The notes beneath the pieces are model-generated. The model was not told where the DNA came from. It did not search any database and saw only the letters and a list, made by a program, of their open reading frames with translations. DNA of 64,000 bases, taken from the NCBI RefSeq assembly GCF_003334815.1, contig NZ_QOWO01000021.1. One strand, 5' to 3'. Positions 208-7,957 of this stretch are shown here, in pieces. Position numbers and translations under genes: made by a program. Each line of letters opens with the position of its first letter. The first letter of the stretch is position 1. This DNA is from Escherichia coli (GTDB taxonomy: Bacteria > Pseudomonadota > Gammaproteobacteria > Enterobacterales > Enterobacteriaceae).

Positions 208-3200
208 ATGGACTTATTTGACCTGTTAACAATTAAATTTACCTTGCCCGCGAAAGCTGCCCCTGTAAGAAAAGTGGGTGGGAATTATGTTCATAAATTA
301 CTTTGCCGATCAACAACAGTATTGGCTCAAGTCAGAAATGCACGTTTCCAAGGATATTTTGAACTTGTTACGGGTCTAAAGCCCCCTCTGGACTATGTCT
401 ATCTGAAAGATCCAAATTCCAGGGGTAAATGCGCAGATGGTGTAGCTTCCCTTAAAGCTAAGGAACCATTTACATTCGAAAAATGGCGAGAAGATACTGA
501 GTTAAGCTGGGAGCAATTTCCAGAGCAGGTAATTAGCACTTCACCTAATGAAATTAATGAACAATGGCATCATCAATTTCAGTTTAGAGAGGACGATCCA
601 GAGCGCAATTCTCCCGGTCTCAGAAAACCCCAACTGGGTGCACTTCATGCAATTGCAGGCTATTTCGCCACTGATTTGCAGGTAGAACCTGCTACCGTCG
701 TACTGCCCACTGGAACGGGAAAAACGGAAACAATGCTGGCTACCATGATATACCAGCGATGCGAGCGAATTTTGCTCATAGTCCCATCTGACTCTCTCCG
801 AACACAGATATCCAAAAAGTTCATCGATTTAGGATATTTGCCAGAGCTAACAGTCGTTCCACCCAACATTGCACTTCCTAATGTCGCCATTATTAAGAAA
901 GGAATTCAGGTAGCGGAAGAAGCTAAGCAATTAGCTTGTGAATCAAACGTCTTGGTTGCTACGACCAGCGTTTTGTCTGCCTGCTCCGAAACAGCATTAA
1001 ATGCACTTTGCGAGTTGTGTAGCCATCTTTTTGTTGATGAGGCTCATCATATCTCAGCCTCATCATGGCAGACAATTCGCAAACGATTTAAAAACAAACG
1101 TGTAGTGCAGTTTACAGCTACCCCTTTTAGGAATGATAAAAAGTCCCTTGGTGGGAAAATTATCTATAACTACACGATGGGGGAAGCCCAACGAGCAGGC
1201 TATTTTACAAATGTAAATTTGCTGCCTGTAGAAGAGTATTACTCTGACCTTATGGATCACGCAATCGCAGATAAAGCTGTTGGCCAACTGCGTATAGACT
1301 TAAATAATGGCCTTGATCATTTGCTTATGGCCCGTACTAGCAATAAGCAGCGAGCAGAAGAAATACTGACTATTTATCAGAATATTGTACCGAACTTTAA
1401 TCCAATCGTTATTCATTCTGATTATCCTAAAACGGAAATAAAAAAACGTCTTAATAAATTATTATCAAGACAATCAAGAATCGTTATTTGCGTAGACATG
1501 TTGGGAGAAGGCTATGACCTACCCAACCTGAAAATTGCCGCTTTGCATGATCACCATAAGTCTCTTGCAGTAACTTTGCAGTTTATTGGCCGTTTTACTC
1601 GTGTCAATAAAGCACAGAAAATTGGTCAAGCTAGTGTAGTCATGAATGTTGCAGACCCTAATGTTGAAGGTGAATTACAGCATCTATATTCAACAGATGC
1701 CGATTGGGATAACGTATTAAGGCGACTCTCTGAAGGACGAATTGCTAGAGAGATTAGGTTGCAAGAGGTCGTGGATGCCTTAAAAAGGAAAGGTGATTTA
1801 CACGATCAGATCTCTCTCTGGAACCTTGAGCCAAGTTGTTCTGTCATGTTATTTAAAACATACTGTGACAATTGGGAGCCTGAAAGATACAAGGAAAAAC
1901 TGCCTAGATTCGATGAATCATGGCATGCAATAGCAGAAGATGAGAATTTGCTTGTTGTGCTAGCTGTCCAGACAACTTCAGTCCGGTGGGGAAACTACAA
2001 AGATCTTAAAGATACCAATTATAAAATTCTAATTGCTCATTGGGATCAAAGCAGATCCGCCTTGTTTGTATTCTCAAATGACTATAAAGCATTCCGGGTT
2101 GAGAATCTGGTTAGTACTATTTGTGATGATAAATTTGAAATTGTCAGTGGTGAAAAAGTTTTTAATGTATTTAATGGTATTGAATATCCTTTAGCAAGAA
2201 ATTTAGGCGCATCCCAAATTGGAGCAATAAGCTTTACTCAATATTTTGGCCCAAATGTCACTGAGGGGCTATCACTAATTGAAGCGTCTCAATCAAGCTT
2301 AAGCAATATTGCTGCATTAGGTTATGAATCCGGAAACCGTGTAATCTGGGGATGCTCGCAACGCAGAGGTAAGGTCTGGTCACCACAAAAAGGGGGTAGC
2401 ATTGCTGATTGGTGCAACTGGGTTAAGAAAACTTGGGACAAAATCTTTAGTTCTGAACCAGATCCAAACAACCTTACGCGTAACTTTTTGCGTCCTGTCC
2501 CATTACTCGAACCCTATAATGAATATCCAATATCAGCTCAATGGGGTGAGTATTTGCTTACTACGTTCGAAGATAAAGTTATTTTTCATTTTGATGCTAT
2601 ATCAGCTCACTTATATTTAGTAGATGTGAAGACTGCTGGAAAGTTTGACGATGGCAATGTGCGGCTCATTTTTTCTACAGATGAAACTTCATCTGAATAT
2701 AAATTATGTCTTACAGGTAGTACTACAGCAAAAGGTTATGCCTATCAGTTGATTTCTGGCCCTGAAGTCTTTGTACAGCGAGGTGAATCTGAACCTGTAT
2801 CACTATCAGAATATATGGAAATTGATCCAGTAATGATTCATTACTCCGATGGCTCATTTTCTTACAACGCTCATATAGTTCATGTAAGCCCAAATATTGG
2901 CCTTTATGACAAAGACGAAATTGTAGCTTTTGATTGGAATGGAACTGATGTTCGACTGGAATCAATGGGCTATACTCGTGATCCATCATCCATCCAGTGG
3001 CGTTGGTACAGTGAAATTAAAGATAATTACGATGTTATTATTAATGACGACGGTAAAGGTGAGTCAGCTGATTTAGTTGGGTTAAGAATAGTTGATGACT
3101 GTATTGTTCTCTCTTTAATTCATTGCAAGTATTCAGGCTCAGAAGAAGCTGGAGCAAGACTTAAAGATCTTTACGAAGTATGTGGGCAGGCACAGAGATG

Positions 3201-3489
3201 CATTCGTTGGAAGCACCTGAATCTTTCCTATTTATACCACCACATTAAGCGGCGCGAGGAACAGTGGCGATCGCTTGGTCATTCTCGCTTTCTAAAAGGC
3301 ACTATAAAAGACCTTGCAGCTATGAAAGAGCGCTCCAGAATCACACCTCTTAAATTCCAAGTTGTTATTGTTCAACCAGGACTTAGAGTAAACAAAATTA
3401 ATGAAGAAGGCCTTAAGTTACTTGGCAGTACGGCCTTATTTATCAAGAAAACAACGATGGCAGACTTAGTTGTTATTGGTTCTAAATAG
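208..3489 (+). CDS. SF2 (ResIII/DEAD-DEAH type) helicase-family ATPase with long uncharacterized C-terminal region (1093 aa)
   Basis: ATG at 208 preceded by AAGAGG at 193-198; Walker A GTGKT (nt 712-726), DEAHH (nt 1036-1050), TATP motif III, QFIGRFTR motif VI (nt 1579-1602); residues ~470-1093 unassigned; AT-rich codon usage. Confidence 0.85.
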   Translation: MDLFDLLTIKFTLPAKAAPVRKVGGNYVHKLLCRSTTVLAQVRNARFQGYFELVTGLKPPLDYVYLKDPNSRGKCADGVASLKAKEPFTFEKWREDTELSWEQFPEQVISTSPNEINEQWHHQFQFREDDPERNSPGLRKPQLGALHAIAGYFATDLQVEPATVVLPTGTGKTETMLATMIYQRCERILLIVPSDSLRTQISKKFIDLGYLPELTVVPPNIALPNVAIIKKGIQVAEEAKQLACESNVLVATTSVLSACSETALNALCELCSHLFVDEAHHISASSWQTIRKRFKNKRVVQFTATPFRNDKKSLGGKIIYNYTMGEAQRAGYFTNVNLLPVEEYYSDLMDHAIADKAVGQLRIDLNNGLDHLLMARTSNKQRAEEILTIYQNIVPNFNPIVIHSDYPKTEIKKRLNKLLSRQSRIVICVDMLGEGYDLPNLKIAALHDHHKSLAVTLQFIGRFTRVNKAQKIGQASVVMNVADPNVEGELQHLYSTDADWDNVLRRLSEGRIAREIRLQEVVDALKRKGDLHDQISLWNLEPSCSVMLFKTYCDNWEPERYKEKLPRFDESWHAIAEDENLLVVLAVQTTSVRWGNYKDLKDTNYKILIAHWDQSRSALFVFSNDYKAFRVENLVSTICDDKFEIVSGEKVFNVFNGIEYPLARNLGASQIGAISFTQYFGPNVTEGLSLIEASQSSLSNIAALGYESGNRVIWGCSQRRGKVWSPQKGGSIADWCNWVKKTWDKIFSSEPDPNNLTRNFLRPVPLLEPYNEYPISAQWGEYLLTTFEDKVIFHFDAISAHLYLVDVKTAGKFDDGNVRLIFSTDETSSEYKLCLTGSTTAKGYAYQLISGPEVFVQRGESEPVSLSEYMEIDPVMIHYSDGSFSYNAHIVHVSPNIGLYDKDEIVAFDWNGTDVRLESMGYTRDPSSIQWRWYSEIKDNYDVIINDDGKGESADLVGLRIVDDCIVLSLIHCKYSGSEEAGARLKDLYEVCGQAQRCIRWKHLNLSYLYHHIKRREEQWRSLGHSRFLKGTIKDLAAMKERSRITPLKFQVVIVQPGLRVNKINEEGLKLLGSTALFIKKTTMADLVVIGSK

Positions 3490-3584
3490 GACGAAAAATT
3501 GATAATATTCGATTTTAGTAATATTAAATAACGAATTGAATATGCTATAAAAATGATGGAAAAAGCAAGAAAAGAGAGTAAATT

Positions 3585-4907
3585 ATGATCCTATTCTTTT
3601 ATCCCTACATAATGCTTTGCTATAGCGCTGGATACGCTTTATTGCAAACACTGGATGGGATGGGTGTGATTAGTACCAACTTTGTAGAAATGAACGCACA
3701 GGGTGCTCTTTTGAGCAGTTACTGGTCTCCCAATAAAGTTGCTGTAGTCTTAGGAGGATGTTTTCTTGAGCTCTTTATTTTATTATTACCTTTTGTTTTC
3801 TTGAGCTCATGGATACTTGCCAGAAAAAAGGGACTCATCATTTGTTTTGTTCTTCTTATAACCCCTGGCCTATTATCGCTCTGTCACCTTCTTCCTGCTA
3901 TCCAGTGGTTGCCATTGACCTATGAAATAGGAGGTACAGGTGCAACAGGTAACGCAGCTGGACTCGGAAGTCTTAGCTTCATAGGGCTATTGAGTGGTTG
4001 GATTTTGGCAGTAATCATTAGTGATATTTTTGCTACAGGAGAGAAATTCAGACAGTGGACAGATATTTTCCTAATACTGACAGCAGTTGGAAACGGTCTT
4101 TTCTGGGTATCAGACAGAGAGGTGGCTGTCGGTAAAACCGCATATGAGAAAACAATTACGGATATTAATGATGCAGCCAAATACCTTCTTTTTCAGGTGA
4201 AAGACTACAGCCGCATGTGTGACAATAACGGGCTTACCGAAATGTCATCTTGTCAGTGGGCATCGTACATTCAAGAAACGCTAGAAAATATTGCCAGTAC
4301 AAAATCATCTGTTATTGAATATGTAATACCTGAAAATCTTGACACCTTCTACCGAATTCCTGAGTACTATAGCAATCAAGTATCTCCAGATAAAATCAGA
4401 CAGGAATTTCAAGACTTCAATAAAAAACTATGCCCAAATAAATCTCTTTCCAAAACAATAACACAATTGCCATCACCTTCTCGATGGTGCCAGACCCCAC
4501 CCCCAGCTTACTGCAATGCCATTCAAGAGGGAAAATATAAAACAGGCATGTCAGACCGTTTCGCTGTCGCCAATGAGTGTGTAACTACATCATTATTAAG
4601 GTACCGCCAAGTTTTATTAAAAGAACAAGCTCGTTTATCCTTAAGTAAAAATGCCCCTCATTATAGATGGATGTGGTTTATTGCTATGTCTTTTTTTATT
4701 GGAGGGAAAATTGCCAATGTAATGACAAAAATAGGTAATGTAGAGAATCGTCTCATAACTGAGAAACATAGAGTTAAATTCATCCTTCTAAAAACATGTG
4801 GTTTTATTGTGCGTACATTAATAAGATGTGCCATCTTATTTCGGAAAGTGTTTTTTTCAACGATCAATTATATCAAAAGATTGAAGAAAATAAAGCATGA
4901 TACTTAA
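3585..4907 (+). CDS. Putative polytopic membrane protein, function unknown (440 aa; start codon uncertain)
   Basis: 1.3 kb ORF in AT-rich DNA; N-terminal half has several hydrophobic helix-length segments, one more near C-terminus; 95 nt downstream of helicase gene, same strand. Confidence 0.55.
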   Translation: MILFFYPYIMLCYSAGYALLQTLDGMGVISTNFVEMNAQGALLSSYWSPNKVAVVLGGCFLELFILLLPFVFLSSWILARKKGLIICFVLLITPGLLSLCHLLPAIQWLPLTYEIGGTGATGNAAGLGSLSFIGLLSGWILAVIISDIFATGEKFRQWTDIFLILTAVGNGLFWVSDREVAVGKTAYEKTITDINDAAKYLLFQVKDYSRMCDNNGLTEMSSCQWASYIQETLENIASTKSSVIEYVIPENLDTFYRIPEYYSNQVSPDKIRQEFQDFNKKLCPNKSLSKTITQLPSPSRWCQTPPPAYCNAIQEGKYKTGMSDRFAVANECVTTSLLRYRQVLLKEQARLSLSKNAPHYRWMWFIAMSFFIGGKIANVMTKIGNVENRLITEKHRVKFILLKTCGFIVRTLIRCAILFRKVFFSTINYIKRLKKIKHDT

Positions 4908-5425
4908 ATAGAATAGTGACAAACACTCAATTGCAAGGTCATTCTTTGTGTTGAATGAATAAAGAACAAGGGGTACTTTCTCCTGTACCCTTGGAGTTTA
5001 TATTAGATAATACATCTGAATCTACTCTGGTGATTCACACTAGCGGCAATAGTGTTTTGTACTCAACCGTTTATACAATAGCATCCATGACTAATTGAGC
5101 GTAGAGTTCAGTAAGCTTATTAATTATCCACTTATTGAAAGAATTCGTGGAACGCTCTTACCGATAAAATCAGTGAATGTATTGCTCTTGGTGATAATGC
5201 CATTGGGAAAAATTACCAACCAGCCATCCCATTAAGGCTAGCCGATTAACTTTAATTGAATCGCCACGGATTTGGCAAACAATTCACATGTCTCTACTAC
5301 GCTTGATTTTTTCGTAGTATAACAGCGTAACCCTTTTTCTCCCGGTTTACATACAAGAAACCTGTTCATCATTGCTGATGAAGATATATGCTGCCCTTAC
5401 ACGATAATTGTTTAGGATAGTAACA

Positions 5426-6391
5426 ATGCCTTTAGATTTAAGTAACACTTTAGTGATTGGCATCAGCGCGACTGCGCTTTTTGATATGAGTGAATCCGAT
5501 CGCATGTTTTGCGAAACCTATGCGACCGATCCTGATAGCGCCATTGAAAAATACCGCGCCTATATGCTGGAGCACGAAAACCAACCTTTACAGCCCGGAA
5601 CAGGCTACCCTTTAGTCAAAGCGTTGCTGGGTCTGAACCAGTACCGTCAACCGGATGATAAATCACCGTTGGTTGAAGTCGTTGTGATGTCACGTAACAG
5701 CCCTGATACAGGTATCCGCGTTCTGAATACTATTCGCCATGACAGGCTCGATATCACGCGCTCTGCCTTTACAGCAGGCGAAACTGTTGCTGATTACCTT
5801 GATGCCTTTGATGTGGATCTGTTTTTAACAACTAACGTTGAAGATGCGCAAAAGGTGATTGATTCCCGATTCTGCGCCGCTGCAATCCTGAAAGATCCGC
5901 CTTCTGACGCATCTGATATCCCGGAAGGGCAAGTGCGCATTGCTTTTGACGGCGACGCGGTACTTTTTTCCGATCAAAGCGAACTGGTTTATAAGACCCA
6001 AGGAATGGTTGCCTTTCATGCTCAGGAAGACGCGCAGCAGGATATCCCTATGGAAGAGGGGCCTTATGCCACTTTGCTAAAAAAAATAGCCAAGCTTCAG
6101 GAACGATTGCCGACCCGCGTTGAGTATTCTCCTGTTCGTATTGCATTGGTGACAGCCCGAAATAGCCCTTCGGAAATGCGCGTTATTAAAACGCTAAGAA
6201 GCTGGGGGGTATATGTCGATGAAGCTTTTTTTCTTGGCGGCGTAGAGAAAACAAAAGTTCTGAAGGCATTTAAACCACACATTTTCTTCGACGATCAGGA
6301 TGTGCATTTAAATACAGCTGCAAAGGTTGTACCTTCCGGGAAAGTACCTTATGCCAGTAACTCCGAACTGGCAGAGCGTGAAGCATCGTAA
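5426..6391 (+). CDS. HAD-like 5'-nucleotidase-family protein (putative)
   Basis: ORF with AGGA 8 nt upstream of ATG 5426; two internally similar halves each with an Asp-rich segment (LFDMSESD and IAFDGDAVLF) and C-terminal FFDDQD resembling HAD phosphatase motifs; family assignment from recollection. Confidence 0.65.
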   Translation: MPLDLSNTLVIGISATALFDMSESDRMFCETYATDPDSAIEKYRAYMLEHENQPLQPGTGYPLVKALLGLNQYRQPDDKSPLVEVVVMSRNSPDTGIRVLNTIRHDRLDITRSAFTAGETVADYLDAFDVDLFLTTNVEDAQKVIDSRFCAAAILKDPPSDASDIPEGQVRIAFDGDAVLFSDQSELVYKTQGMVAFHAQEDAQQDIPMEEGPYATLLKKIAKLQERLPTRVEYSPVRIALVTARNSPSEMRVIKTLRSWGVYVDEAFFLGGVEKTKVLKAFKPHIFFDDQDVHLNTAAKVVPSGKVPYASNSELAEREAS

Positions 6392-6582
6392 TTATCGCTG
6401 ATAAACCATTTAGTCATTAAGGCTGGATGGTTTGTATACCACACGCAAAATAACGGCCCTACCCCAGATCAATGCTCGCCTCTGAACACCTCTTTCCTGT
6501 GCCATTCCACAAACTGTTCGCCCGGATAATTTTCTTTAACCGGTGGCAACGCAATCGCTTTTCCCGCAAAATCCCAGAACAG

Positions 6583-7344
6583 TCACTGTACCACTCCACC
6601 ATCATTTACCGCACCGGAAACTACCACACGCATATTTTCATCCAGGTCAATCGAACCGCGATCAAACGCTTTATGATGGATTGCGCACAATGCCAGGCCA
6701 TTAGGTACTTCACAAGGGCCATGGTGCTGTTTCCATCTGATATGAGCAGCTTCCAGAGCAATCGGCGCATTGTCGTGGCGCATGTTAAAGCCGCAGATAG
6801 CGCACTGATAATTGTAAGCATGTAGCACCATCTGGCGAAACTTCGGATCGCGTTGACGAAGAGAGGTGCGAATATCAAAACTCCTCTCGTCAGCTATCTC
6901 TTCCTGAATACTGGCCGGGAAATGCGCCTCCAGGAGCTGCTGCGCCAGCGTATCAATTAACCTGTAATTTTTTTCCACCAACGCAAAATTATCGGCATCA
7001 AATCCACCAGCGACATTATATTCAATGAGTTCACGTCGGGGCGGCTGGCGGCTACCACTGGTTGAGCACAGTTCCGCGTTATGTAGTTCCCAGAAGCCAT
7101 CGCCCTTCAGACGCCAGAACGGCATGTCCGGGCGCTGGTCACGGCGCTGCGGTCCATAACGTTCCAGGAGATCCAACAGGGGCTCGTAGATTTCAGAAGC
7201 ATAGTTAAACAGGCGACCATGACTCTGCCGATAGTGTGAGAGAACGTACAGCAGCAATAATGGCTTATGTGGCGCACGTTGTTCACCTTTGCGCCAGATG
7301 GTGATATTTGATATCGCTTGCTTTAGGGTTTTGTCAGAGGTCAT
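6583..7344 (-). CDS. HNH endonuclease-family protein with uncharacterized N-terminal domain
   Basis: C-terminal HNH signature (YQCAICGF ... AAHIRWKQHHG ... NGLALCAIHHKAFDRG); start could be ATG 7344 or upstream TTG 7389. Confidence 0.75.
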   Translation of the reverse strand: MTSDKTLKQAISNITIWRKGEQRAPHKPLLLLYVLSHYRQSHGRLFNYASEIYEPLLDLLERYGPQRRDQRPDMPFWRLKGDGFWELHNAELCSTSGSRQPPRRELIEYNVAGGFDADNFALVEKNYRLIDTLAQQLLEAHFPASIQEEIADERSFDIRTSLRQRDPKFRQMVLHAYNYQCAICGFNMRHDNAPIALEAAHIRWKQHHGPCEVPNGLALCAIHHKAFDRGSIDLDENMRVVVSGAVNDGGVVQ

Positions 7345-7463
7345 TGCGTTGAAGAATCCATGAGCATATGTTTGCGATGATGCTCGCAACTATATGTATA
7401 TTCAAGGCATTATTGCAGACATCCTTTTTGCCTGACGGCTCTGTACCTGGCAGATGGAATTCT

Positions 7464-7518
7464 GAAAAAAATACAGCGACCAACCAGTCCTAAGCGGTCT
7501 GGTTGGTCTTTTAAATTT
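7464..7518. terminator. Hairpin (gaccaaccag / ctggttggtc) flanked by A-run and T-run; candidate bidirectional intrinsic terminator
   Basis: 10-bp perfect inverted repeat at 7478-7487 / 7499-7508 with 11-nt loop, AAAAAAA upstream and TTTTAAATTT downstream. Confidence 0.5.
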
Positions 7519-7549
7519 AAACATCAGCCAAGGAGTAACGGCATTCAAC

Positions 7550-7780
7550 TCACTCGCCATTACCCCGATTGATCTTCGCATAGTCAAACGGCGTAATCGC
7601 TCTTTCCCGATTGGCATCCAGAAAATCGACCCACCACTGCAACATCAGCTTACGCTCATCCAGATATTCCGCTTTATGGATTATACGCGGCCTGCACTGA
7701 GTTACGTCCATGTGGCTCATCTGACGTTCAGCCGCTTTATCTCGTGCTGTTTTGGTCTCAATACTTCCATGCCGTTGCAA
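7550..7780 (-). pseudogene. Remnant of a P4-type tyrosine integrase (C-terminal ~70 codons only)
   Basis: Translation aligns to the C-terminus of the intact integrase at 10668-11933 (about 37 of 58 residues identical by manual alignment, e.g. IHKAE.L.ER.LMLQWW.DFLDANRER); N-terminal catalytic body absent. Confidence 0.7.
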
Positions 7781-7957
7781 TTACCTCTTAAACCATTCCT
7801 TACCATTTTCATGTCTTCGATAAGAAATCTTCATCATGCATGATCGATTTTGTCTATCTATTCGATCGAATTTTTTCTTTTTACCCTGTCTTTTGCATGG
7901 TTTTAAAATAAGCAACCTTCTTTATCGGGTGGGTAAGAACCAACGGAGATGATTGAA

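Follow-up and report, generated by a model that had tools for sequence, protein, structure and literature searches.

The 518 nt between a membrane protein gene and a 5'-nucleotidase-family gene (positions 4908-5425 of a 64,000-nt stretch of an Escherichia coli contig, hereafter the window) are very probably a scar left by recombination in an integrase-borne defence island, a mosaic located at tRNA-Phe. The spacer is a composite scar and not a dedicated element, made up of a putative terminator hairpin, about 270 nt of filler and the fossil 3' end of an integrase gene, and this explanation requires no separate function for any of the 518 nt. A preliminary description of this region had reported a gap of about 500 bp and considered it unusually long. 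Its coordinates proved exact, the gap running from the ORF stop at 4907 to the ATG at 5426-5428, and its length is accounted for because both the integrase fossil and the integrase's former 3' flank have been retained. The suggestion that the gap might be a module junction is now supported by three breakpoints (~5013, ~5258-5283 and ~5400-5413).

The spacer is AT-rich by the standard of E. coli, but its GC content matches that of its own module: it is 37.1%, against 49.9% for the whole window, 40.1% for the upstream helicase gene and 38.1% for the membrane protein gene, and the earlier characterization as AT-rich therefore holds in the first comparison and fails in the second. The longest ORFs of the spacer in the ORF list are 47, 46 and 44 aa long, and none was kept open across the relatives in a six-frame comparison of the aligned copies, in agreement with the earlier statement that there is no ORF of note. 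The designation as non-coding is correct for most of the spacer, but about a quarter of it is left over from a dead integrase gene, of which the 3' end lies on the minus strand at 5284-~5412. The spacer itself reveals no new mechanism or biology; the outcome is a corrected annotation: a fragment of an integrase pseudogene, ~130 nt long, had gone unannotated, and the hairpin flagged previously is without significance.

An integrase fossil at the nucleotidase end of the spacer

The last ~40 codons of a P4-type tyrosine integrase gene were recognized on the minus strand at 5284..5412 by collinear alignment and nhmmer, with a right edge that is uncertain and lies between ~5400 and ~5413. In a DNA alignment this segment runs collinear with the final ~150 nt of six integrase genes, and its stop codon (TGA at 5286-5284) falls in the same alignment column as the stops of the intact integrases. 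In the block encoding VRAAYI, the fossil reads GTA AGG GCA GCA TAT ATC against GTG AGG GCG GCG TAT ATC, the two differing at third positions only. Elsewhere the segment is damaged: CAA TGA TGA stands in place of CAG TGG TGG (QWW), which changes the two tryptophan codons to two stops, a deletion of 31 nt follows behind the VRAAYI block, and the window copy carries one extra A in an A-run, which is a +1 frameshift. The two stops and the 31-nt deletion are common to the window fossil and to a copy in Klebsiella pneumoniae (Kp176). The Kp176 fossil can be read in a single frame as Q, two stops, AGFLDANREKRVTLFYYEKINRGNDI and a final stop, where the intact protein reads QWWADFLDANRERAITPFDYAKINRGNGE and a stop; the peptide of the fossil, when repaired, contains VRAAYI followed farther on by QWWAGFLDANREKRVTLFYYEKINRGNDI.

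Searches at the DNA level and at the protein level differed in what they detected. With nhmmer and a profile of 11 integrase 3' ends, the window was matched on the minus strand at the expected place with E = 4.2e-05 (13 bits), and the Kp176 copy, also on the minus strand, with E = 3.1e-13 (39.5 bits), while none of six other nucleotidase upstream regions (E6, ET625 and L008-L011) was matched by the same profile. A tblastn search with an intact integrase gave 71% identity over 24 aa in Kp176 (E = 3.6e-05), but with three intact integrases it found nothing in the spacer of the window even at E <= 10, because the frameshift, the stops and the deletion defeat a protein-level search. A DNA local alignment of the window fossil to the integrase scored 29, a modest excess over the 16.3 +/- 2.1 of shuffled sequences. 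Given the negative tblastn result and this modest score, the case for the window copy leans on synteny, the DNA profile and the better-kept Klebsiella copy. With respect to synteny, in islands at tRNA-leuX the ~370-nt flank of the membrane protein gene extends to the stop of an intact integrase gene, and the fossil lies in the same place, orientation and register. With ~40 codons, consecutive TGA codons, a 31-nt deletion and a frameshift, and with neither an intact frame nor a catalytic domain, 5284-~5412 is a fossil and not a gene; PGAP annotates nothing there.

Remnants of this kind are familiar from mosaic islands that have accreted in tandem at tRNA genes; examples are the truncated intB of KpLE2, at leuX in E. 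coli K-12, and pathogenicity islands of mosaic structure at pheV, leuX and selC. As in those cases, the fossil described here is a minus-strand, P4-type sequence oriented like the intact integrase on the tRNA side, has lost its 5' part, contains stops, a deletion and a frameshift, marks a boundary between blocks of cargo, and is accompanied by two further integrase copies in the window. It differs from them in being only ~40 codons long and unannotated, in having no att (tRNA 3'-end) repeat beside it, and in abutting the ribosome-binding site of the next gene. An integrase fossil at such a seam is an ordinary by-product of island mosaicism.

The preliminary description had drawn attention to a small hairpin in this part of the spacer. 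The hairpin is present, with a perfect 7-bp stem (TACTACG at 5295-5301 and CGTAGTA at 5313-5319) and an 11-nt loop, but it lies inside the fossil codons for YYEKIKRS and does not exceed chance level: of 1000 dinucleotide shuffles of the spacer, 34% contained one or more perfect 7-bp inverted repeats with a loop of 3-15 nt. Its folding energy is -6.0 kcal/mol on the plus strand (z = -1.3) and -9.5 kcal/mol on the minus strand. The Kp176 copy has a C.A mismatch (TACCACG) and no fold there, and no comparable repeat occurs at the corresponding position of the intact integrases; we judge this hairpin to be a chance feature. Repeats elsewhere in 4700-5600 were limited to short, chance-like matches, including an 8-bp inverted repeat that brackets the fossil.

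Relatives of the spacer and positions of the breakpoints

The spacer was found in 15 of 5426 complete E. coli genomes, which fall into two kinds. In ten, the spacer is complete (518 nt, 97-100% identity) and the nucleotidase gene lies downstream; in the two of these that were inspected (A19 and PapRG) the island adjoins tRNA-Phe, with yqgA/speC on one side and a truncated Type I R-M system on the other. The other five carry only the first ~350 nt, at 95% identity, with a weak extension to nucleotide 453 into an annotated tyrosine recombinase. In two of these five (PK8568 and CU42ET-1), inspection showed hsdM/S, the helicase gene, the membrane protein gene, 369 nt, an intact convergent integrase gene and tRNA-Leu, in this order; in two more, an integrase annotation lies under the match. 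Four further loci came from a single search of GTDB species genomes for the membrane protein. The arrangement of membrane protein gene, ~345-370 nt and convergent integrase gene was also found in Lonsdalea quercina, Salmonella enterica arizonae and Escherichia sp.; tRNA-Leu follows beyond the integrase in Lonsdalea quercina and Escherichia sp., and in S. arizonae the gene order is the same, with no tRNA found in the stretch of the locus that was examined. In Morganella morganii the context downstream of the membrane protein gene is different. The chromosome of K. pneumoniae Kp176, which is filed among plasmids, contains the whole spacer at 90.7% identity, with the nucleotidase gene downstream, in a tRNA-Leu island. 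Apart from this misfiled chromosome, the plasmid collection yielded only a record of E. coli C5.

Comparison of these copies placed three breakpoints in the spacer. The first, at ~5013, is the end of the portable helicase/membrane unit: Morganella is 99% identical to the window before this point and unrelated after it. The second, at ~5258-5283, appears as a step in the identity to the leuX islands, which runs at 96, 95 and 96%, then falls to 88% (5226-5283) and to 65% across the fossil. When the window is compared with Klebsiella, 5014-5283 and the fossil have diverged equally (~91%), and therefore the step is attributed to a different integrase allele brought in by recombination, not to faster decay. 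The third breakpoint, at ~5400-5413, is the fusion to the backbone that carries the nucleotidase gene, of which other contexts share only 0-40 nt before the ATG. It had been proposed that homologous islands be examined for contiguity of the two flanking genes, and the opposite was seen: the two genes are not neighbours in related islands, in which the membrane protein gene is followed by an integrase gene, and the nucleotidase gene is preceded by Dsr1, by an AAA-ATPase with an HNH protein, or by others.

The helicase/membrane module and its probable terminator hairpin

On the left, the spacer is flanked by the plus-strand gene of a 440-aa multi-pass membrane protein (3585..4907), whose partner is a plus-strand helicase gene (208-3489, 1093 aa), both taken from the ORF list. 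The membrane protein has no family match in Pfam, NCBIfam or PADLOC, and in the loci examined its gene is always located behind a ResIII/DEAD helicase gene and downstream of a Type I R-M system. Identity in the relatives marks 4908..5013 as the 3' tail of this module on the plus strand, and it is the sole part of the spacer that accompanies the gene pair in every relative (99% identity in Morganella morganii, 96-99% in E. coli and Escherichia sp., 91% in Klebsiella, and 72% in Lonsdalea and S. arizonae).

Within this tail, a conserved GC-rich hairpin with a stem of 8-10 bp and a loop of 8 nt was located at 4967..4994, on both strands, by a terminator scan, RNAfold and comparison of the relatives. 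Its core, GGGGTAC/GTACCC, does not vary among the seven sequences compared, which come from five genera, and Lonsdalea has a longer stem that is perfect. The scan flagged a minus-strand terminator at 4990..4971, consisting of a 6-pair stem followed by the tail CTTGTTCTTT; on the plus strand the same stem is followed by a weak U-tract, AGUUUAUAUU, and stayed below the threshold of the scan. The energies calculated with RNAfold were -13.5 kcal/mol on the plus strand and -10.6 kcal/mol on the minus strand. Pairing is possible in 88.6% of the cells of the alignment of the seven sequences, compared with 26-57% when the partners are slid; seven pairs never vary, one shows a compensatory change (C-G to U-A), and one changes from G-U to G-C. 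With only seven sequences the covariation is not significant, and 264 of 500 shuffles scored as high or higher. Taken together, these properties suggest that the hairpin is probably a bidirectional intrinsic terminator between the membrane protein gene on the plus strand and a formerly convergent integrase gene on the minus strand. It resembles known terminators of this type in being a GC-rich hairpin of 8-10 bp between a plus-strand gene and what was formerly a minus-strand gene, T-rich on its minus-strand side and conserved in five genera, and differs from them in the weakness of its plus-strand U-tract and in its non-significant covariation among the seven sequences. From these features we infer that the transcript of the helicase and membrane protein genes is probably still terminated at this hairpin.

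The filler and the possibility of a small RNA or a small protein

Between the hairpin and the fossil lie ~270 nt of non-coding filler (5014..5283), which in intact tRNA-Leu islands occupy the interval between the terminator hairpin and the stop codon of the integrase gene. This segment is present wherever the convergent integrase is present and is absent from Morganella. It is 95-96% identical in the E. coli leuX islands and 66-70% identical in Lonsdalea and S. arizonae, in each case beside an intact convergent integrase gene, and would thus be the former 3' flank or 3' UTR of the integrase gene. In the seven aligned copies it has stops in all six frames, several of which are common to the E. 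coli-type and the Lonsdalea-type copies, and its substitutions follow no consistent codon phase; a marginal phase bias in 5000-5120 (21, 11 and 9 substitutions in the three phases) fits no ORF. Between E. coli and Lonsdalea, the identity of 66-70% is below that at the third codon positions of the membrane protein gene (79%) and of the helicase gene (89%), and therefore the segment shows no sign of constraint; it appears to be unconstrained and to bear no mark of function.

This comparison also bears on the proposal, made in the preliminary description, that the spacer might host a small RNA. Such an RNA could be a minus-strand transcript of ~260-280 nt that starts at a promoter-like site (5278-5249) and ends at the hairpin with the T-run (4990-4961), or a processed 3' UTR of the integrase gene. 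The segment is indeed bracketed by a minus-strand promoter-like site (TTGCCA, an 18-nt spacer and TAAAGT) and a terminator-like site, and its alignment is nearly gapless across four genera. However, conservation of the -35 and -10 hexamers is lacking both in the leuX copies of E. coli and in Lonsdalea, no Rfam match was obtained in the spacer at E <= 1 when 3000-8000 was searched, the minimum free energies of single-sequence folding on the two strands give z values of only -1.6 and -1.5 and thus no signal of structure, and the covariation term of RNAalifold, +0.44, lends no support. With divergence above that of the neighbouring synonymous sites in addition, a small RNA in 5014-5283 is very unlikely, and the earlier proposal finds no backing here. 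More broadly, it is hardly to be expected that 5014-5283, which goes with the helicase/membrane cargo in four genera, is a functional RNA, derived from the 3' UTR of the integrase gene or produced as an antisense transcript ending at the shared hairpin, or that the fossil has been exapted as a promoter of the nucleotidase gene; no data in this analysis support either.

A small protein is the least probable of the alternatives that we considered, to the point of being almost dismissible. The candidates in the window are a 47-aa ORF (4955-5098) and a 46-aa ORF (5095-5235) on the plus strand and a 31-aa ORF (5124-5219) on the minus strand, two of which (47 and 31 aa) are open in Klebsiella as well, and short ORFs overlap the same place in Lonsdalea. 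However, the 47-aa ORF has no Shine-Dalgarno sequence, passes through the terminator hairpin, contains stops in Lonsdalea and S. arizonae and a 1-nt deletion in PapRG that interrupt it, and differs from Klebsiella mostly by non-synonymous changes; the 46-aa ORF is cut by a stop codon within it in S. arizonae and Klebsiella; and the minus-strand ORF ranges from 26 to 41 aa across the copies, with non-ATG starts and no enrichment of substitutions at third positions. The comparative data disfavour both the small RNA and the small protein.

The nucleotidase gene and the possibility of a promoter

The right flank of the spacer is an intact plus-strand gene of the 5'-nucleotidase family (5426..6391), assigned to PADLOC PDC-S08, a candidate defence gene, with E = 1.4e-133. 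Its ATG at 5426 sits inside an ORF that begins at TTG 5408 in the ORF list, and its product is 98% identical over 321 aa to a protein of the leuX island of E6. The gene is found in ~101 E. coli genomes behind unrelated cargo: it is preceded by dsr1 on the opposite strand in E6, by an AAA-ATPase and HNH pair in ET625, by a 580-aa hypothetical protein behind hsdR in three genomes, and by two hypothetical proteins in a DH5alpha-labelled genome. The homology of these other contexts to the window starts between 5386 and 5426, depending on the island, which is 0-40 nt before the ATG; the DH5alpha-labelled genome has no homology before the ATG, and the selC island of ET625 resembles the window to ~40 nt before it, overlapping the edge of the fossil, where nhmmer finds no fossil in ET625. 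Most of the other contexts examined have the sequence T(A/T)GGA(T/A/C)AGTAAC(A/C)ATG in common. What remains of the native leader in the window is therefore placed at ~5413..5425, plus strand, with the ribosome-binding site AGGA at 5414-5417, and a -10-like hexamer, GATAAT (5403-5408, plus strand), lies just upstream of it, at the junction.

It has been suggested for this spacer that it is a promoter region, and a functional promoter or regulatory region of the nucleotidase gene in the spacer or its right-hand part, with the fossil exapted for promoter elements, is an alternative that we regard as unlikely, though less so than the two just discussed. The nucleotidase ORF is intact in the window, and the upstream hairpin should block read-through, so that a promoter would be needed if the gene is expressed. 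GATAAT is located 18 nt before the ATG, and GATTAT or GATTTT occurs in several of the other nucleotidase contexts. Promoters arise easily in AT-rich DNA. On the other hand, a scan of the spacer detected no sigma-70-like site on the plus strand, and the two sites that it did detect, against 3.5 +/- 1.6 expected from shuffles, are both on the minus strand; GATAAT is isolated, with no acceptable -35 element 16-18 nt upstream; and the native upstream regions found elsewhere are non-homologous beyond 13-40 nt before the ATG. Furthermore, the gene, which is in a single frame in the window, carries a frameshift in A19, PapRG and Kp176, three of the four carriers examined, which suggests weak selection, assembly errors being an alternative. 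A functional promoter is compatible with an origin of the spacer as a scar. As the scar is reconstructed here, the nucleotidase gene is without its native upstream region, and we infer from the junction that it would be expressed weakly, from a residual or fortuitous promoter or by read-through.

Proposed history of the spacer

The homologies, breakpoints and pseudogene lesions described above can be ordered into a series of events, which is put forward as the most economical reconstruction. The ancestral order would have been membrane protein gene, terminator hairpin, flank of ~270 nt, convergent P4-type integrase gene and tRNA gene, an order that survives at tRNA-Leu in E. coli, Lonsdalea and S. 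arizonae. An island of this type (tRNA, integrase, flank, terminator, membrane protein, helicase and Type I R-M system) may then have come to lie beside a second island with the order tRNA, integrase, PT-restriction endonuclease, nucleotidase and cargo, most likely in a setting of tandem islands. The nucleotidase gene would have belonged to the conserved backbone of this second island, together with the genes for the PT-DNA restriction endonuclease and the integrase and the tRNA gene. A deletion or illegitimate recombination between the upstream edge of the nucleotidase ribosome-binding site and codon ~370 of the integrase gene of the helicase island could have removed the first ~370 integrase codons and whatever lay beyond them, and fused the remaining stump ~13 nt before the nucleotidase start codon. 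The stump would subsequently have decayed by two stops, the 31-nt deletion and the frameshift, and the fused block would have moved between Klebsiella (tRNA-Leu) and E. coli (tRNA-Phe). That the composite spread as one block is indicated by Klebsiella, which carries the same junction and the same lesions. When the 3' ends of tRNA-Leu and tRNA-Phe were sought in the window, only the tRNA-Phe gene itself was found, and since there is no att remnant near the junction, tandem integration followed by deletion is not directly documented.

The setting of the spacer is in keeping with this history. tRNA-leuX is the most occupied defence hotspot of E. coli (#37) and is anchored by a site-specific integrase, and defence islands with an integrase only have been described (Hochhauser et al. 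2023, PMC10121019; review PMC12707154). Like those islands, the one in the window has a tRNA anchor, a single arm-type integrase, a Type I R-M system and a variable slot for alternative defence cargo (Dsr1, an AAA-ATPase and HNH pair, or the helicase and the membrane protein), along with a PT-dependent restriction enzyme and the nucleotidase as a defence candidate. Unlike them, the window copy is at tRNA-Phe, between yqgA and the island, rather than at leuX, two islands of this sort are fused in it, and the feature studied here is a seam and not a defence gene. At the level of base pairs, the seam records how defence islands are reshuffled, with cargo blocks swapped at or beside integrase genes; a backbone gene such as the nucleotidase gene can lose its promoter region in the process, and the fused composite then crosses genera. 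The fossil is also a handy marker for tracing the composite, and the three breakpoints delimit the minimal mobile unit of helicase and membrane protein genes.

The window has the same tRNA-Phe gene as A19 and PapRG, at 12131-12206, and three integrase copies on the same strand point at this gene: the fossil at 5284-5412, the last 70 codons of a second copy at 7553-7762, and an intact copy at 10668-11933. This succession is a signature of serial accretion and decay. The PT-restriction gene, which is situated between the integrase copies, carries an internal stop.

Helicase/membrane-protein pair

The variable slot of the islands is occupied here by two genes (window 208-4907, + strand), encoding a helicase of 1093 aa with ResIII, DEAD and Helicase_C domains and a multi-pass membrane protein of 440 aa, and in sister islands by Dsr1 or by an AAA-ATPase and HNH pair. 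The two genes were found to co-occur invariably, in the window and in loci L002, L004, L007 (Klebsiella pneumoniae Kp176) and L012-L015, and islands carrying them were found in five genera. In the annotated loci, the hsdS gene of a Type I R-M system is located directly 5' of the pair. The membrane protein has no family in Pfam, NCBIfam or PADLOC, and the only PADLOC match for the pair is a weak one of the helicase to PbeA (8.6e-09). The two genes appear to form a candidate anti-phage pair that has no name yet.

In Morganella morganii (L014 5430-9320), the pair is followed on its 3' side by a terminator hairpin and then by unrelated sequence with a 302-aa ORF, for which there is only a faint XerC-like match (1e-4). 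Neither a P4-type integrase nor a tRNA lies within 4 kb in this locus, and therefore the pair is carried by another kind of element as well.

Nucleotidase and restriction endonuclease genes

The PDC-S08 nucleotidase gene (window 5426-6391) is intact in the window, while its counterparts are split into two frames in A19 (L001; break near residue 62-75) and in both PapRG and Kp176 (breaks near residue 208-220). Either the gene, lacking a promoter, has genuinely decayed in these genomes, or the split frames stem from sequencing errors in homopolymers. In the selC island of E. coli ET625, the region upstream of the nucleotidase gene (L006 5990-6039) resembles window 5386-5425. The likeness extends to approximately 40-60 nt upstream of the ATG and reaches into the margin of the integrase fossil, the decayed 3' end of a P4-type integrase gene. 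No integrase signal was detected by nhmmer in this region of ET625. From the likeness to ET625, the junction between fossil and nucleotidase gene may be older than the present-day island types.

The phosphorothioated-DNA-binding restriction endonuclease gene (window 6472-7344, - strand; NCBIfam NF045808, 1.9e-114) is a pseudogene: its alignment to the intact E6 protein spans all 291 residues, an internal stop ends the ORF at 6583, and the A19 gene has the identical defect.

Integrase remnants and inverted repeats

Between this pseudogene and tia lies a second integrase remnant (window 7553-7762, - strand), which comprises the last ~70 codons and is 73-74% identical to leuX-type integrases and 63% identical to the window's own intact integrase. 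The latter (10668-11933) adjoins tRNA-Phe (12131-12206), and all three, the remnant, the spacer fossil and the intact integrase, share one orientation.

The fossil is almost exactly bracketed by a perfect 8-bp inverted repeat, AAACAATT / AATTGTTT (window 5277-5284 and 5406-5413), which forms part of 15-nt arms with 80% complementarity. Since the sequence from which each half derives also occurs in intact integrases, this repeat is probably due to chance. A second perfect inverted repeat, of 7 bp (TTCATCA ttgc TGATGAA; window 5365-5382), coincides with the site of the 31-nt deletion and the two stop codons within the fossil.
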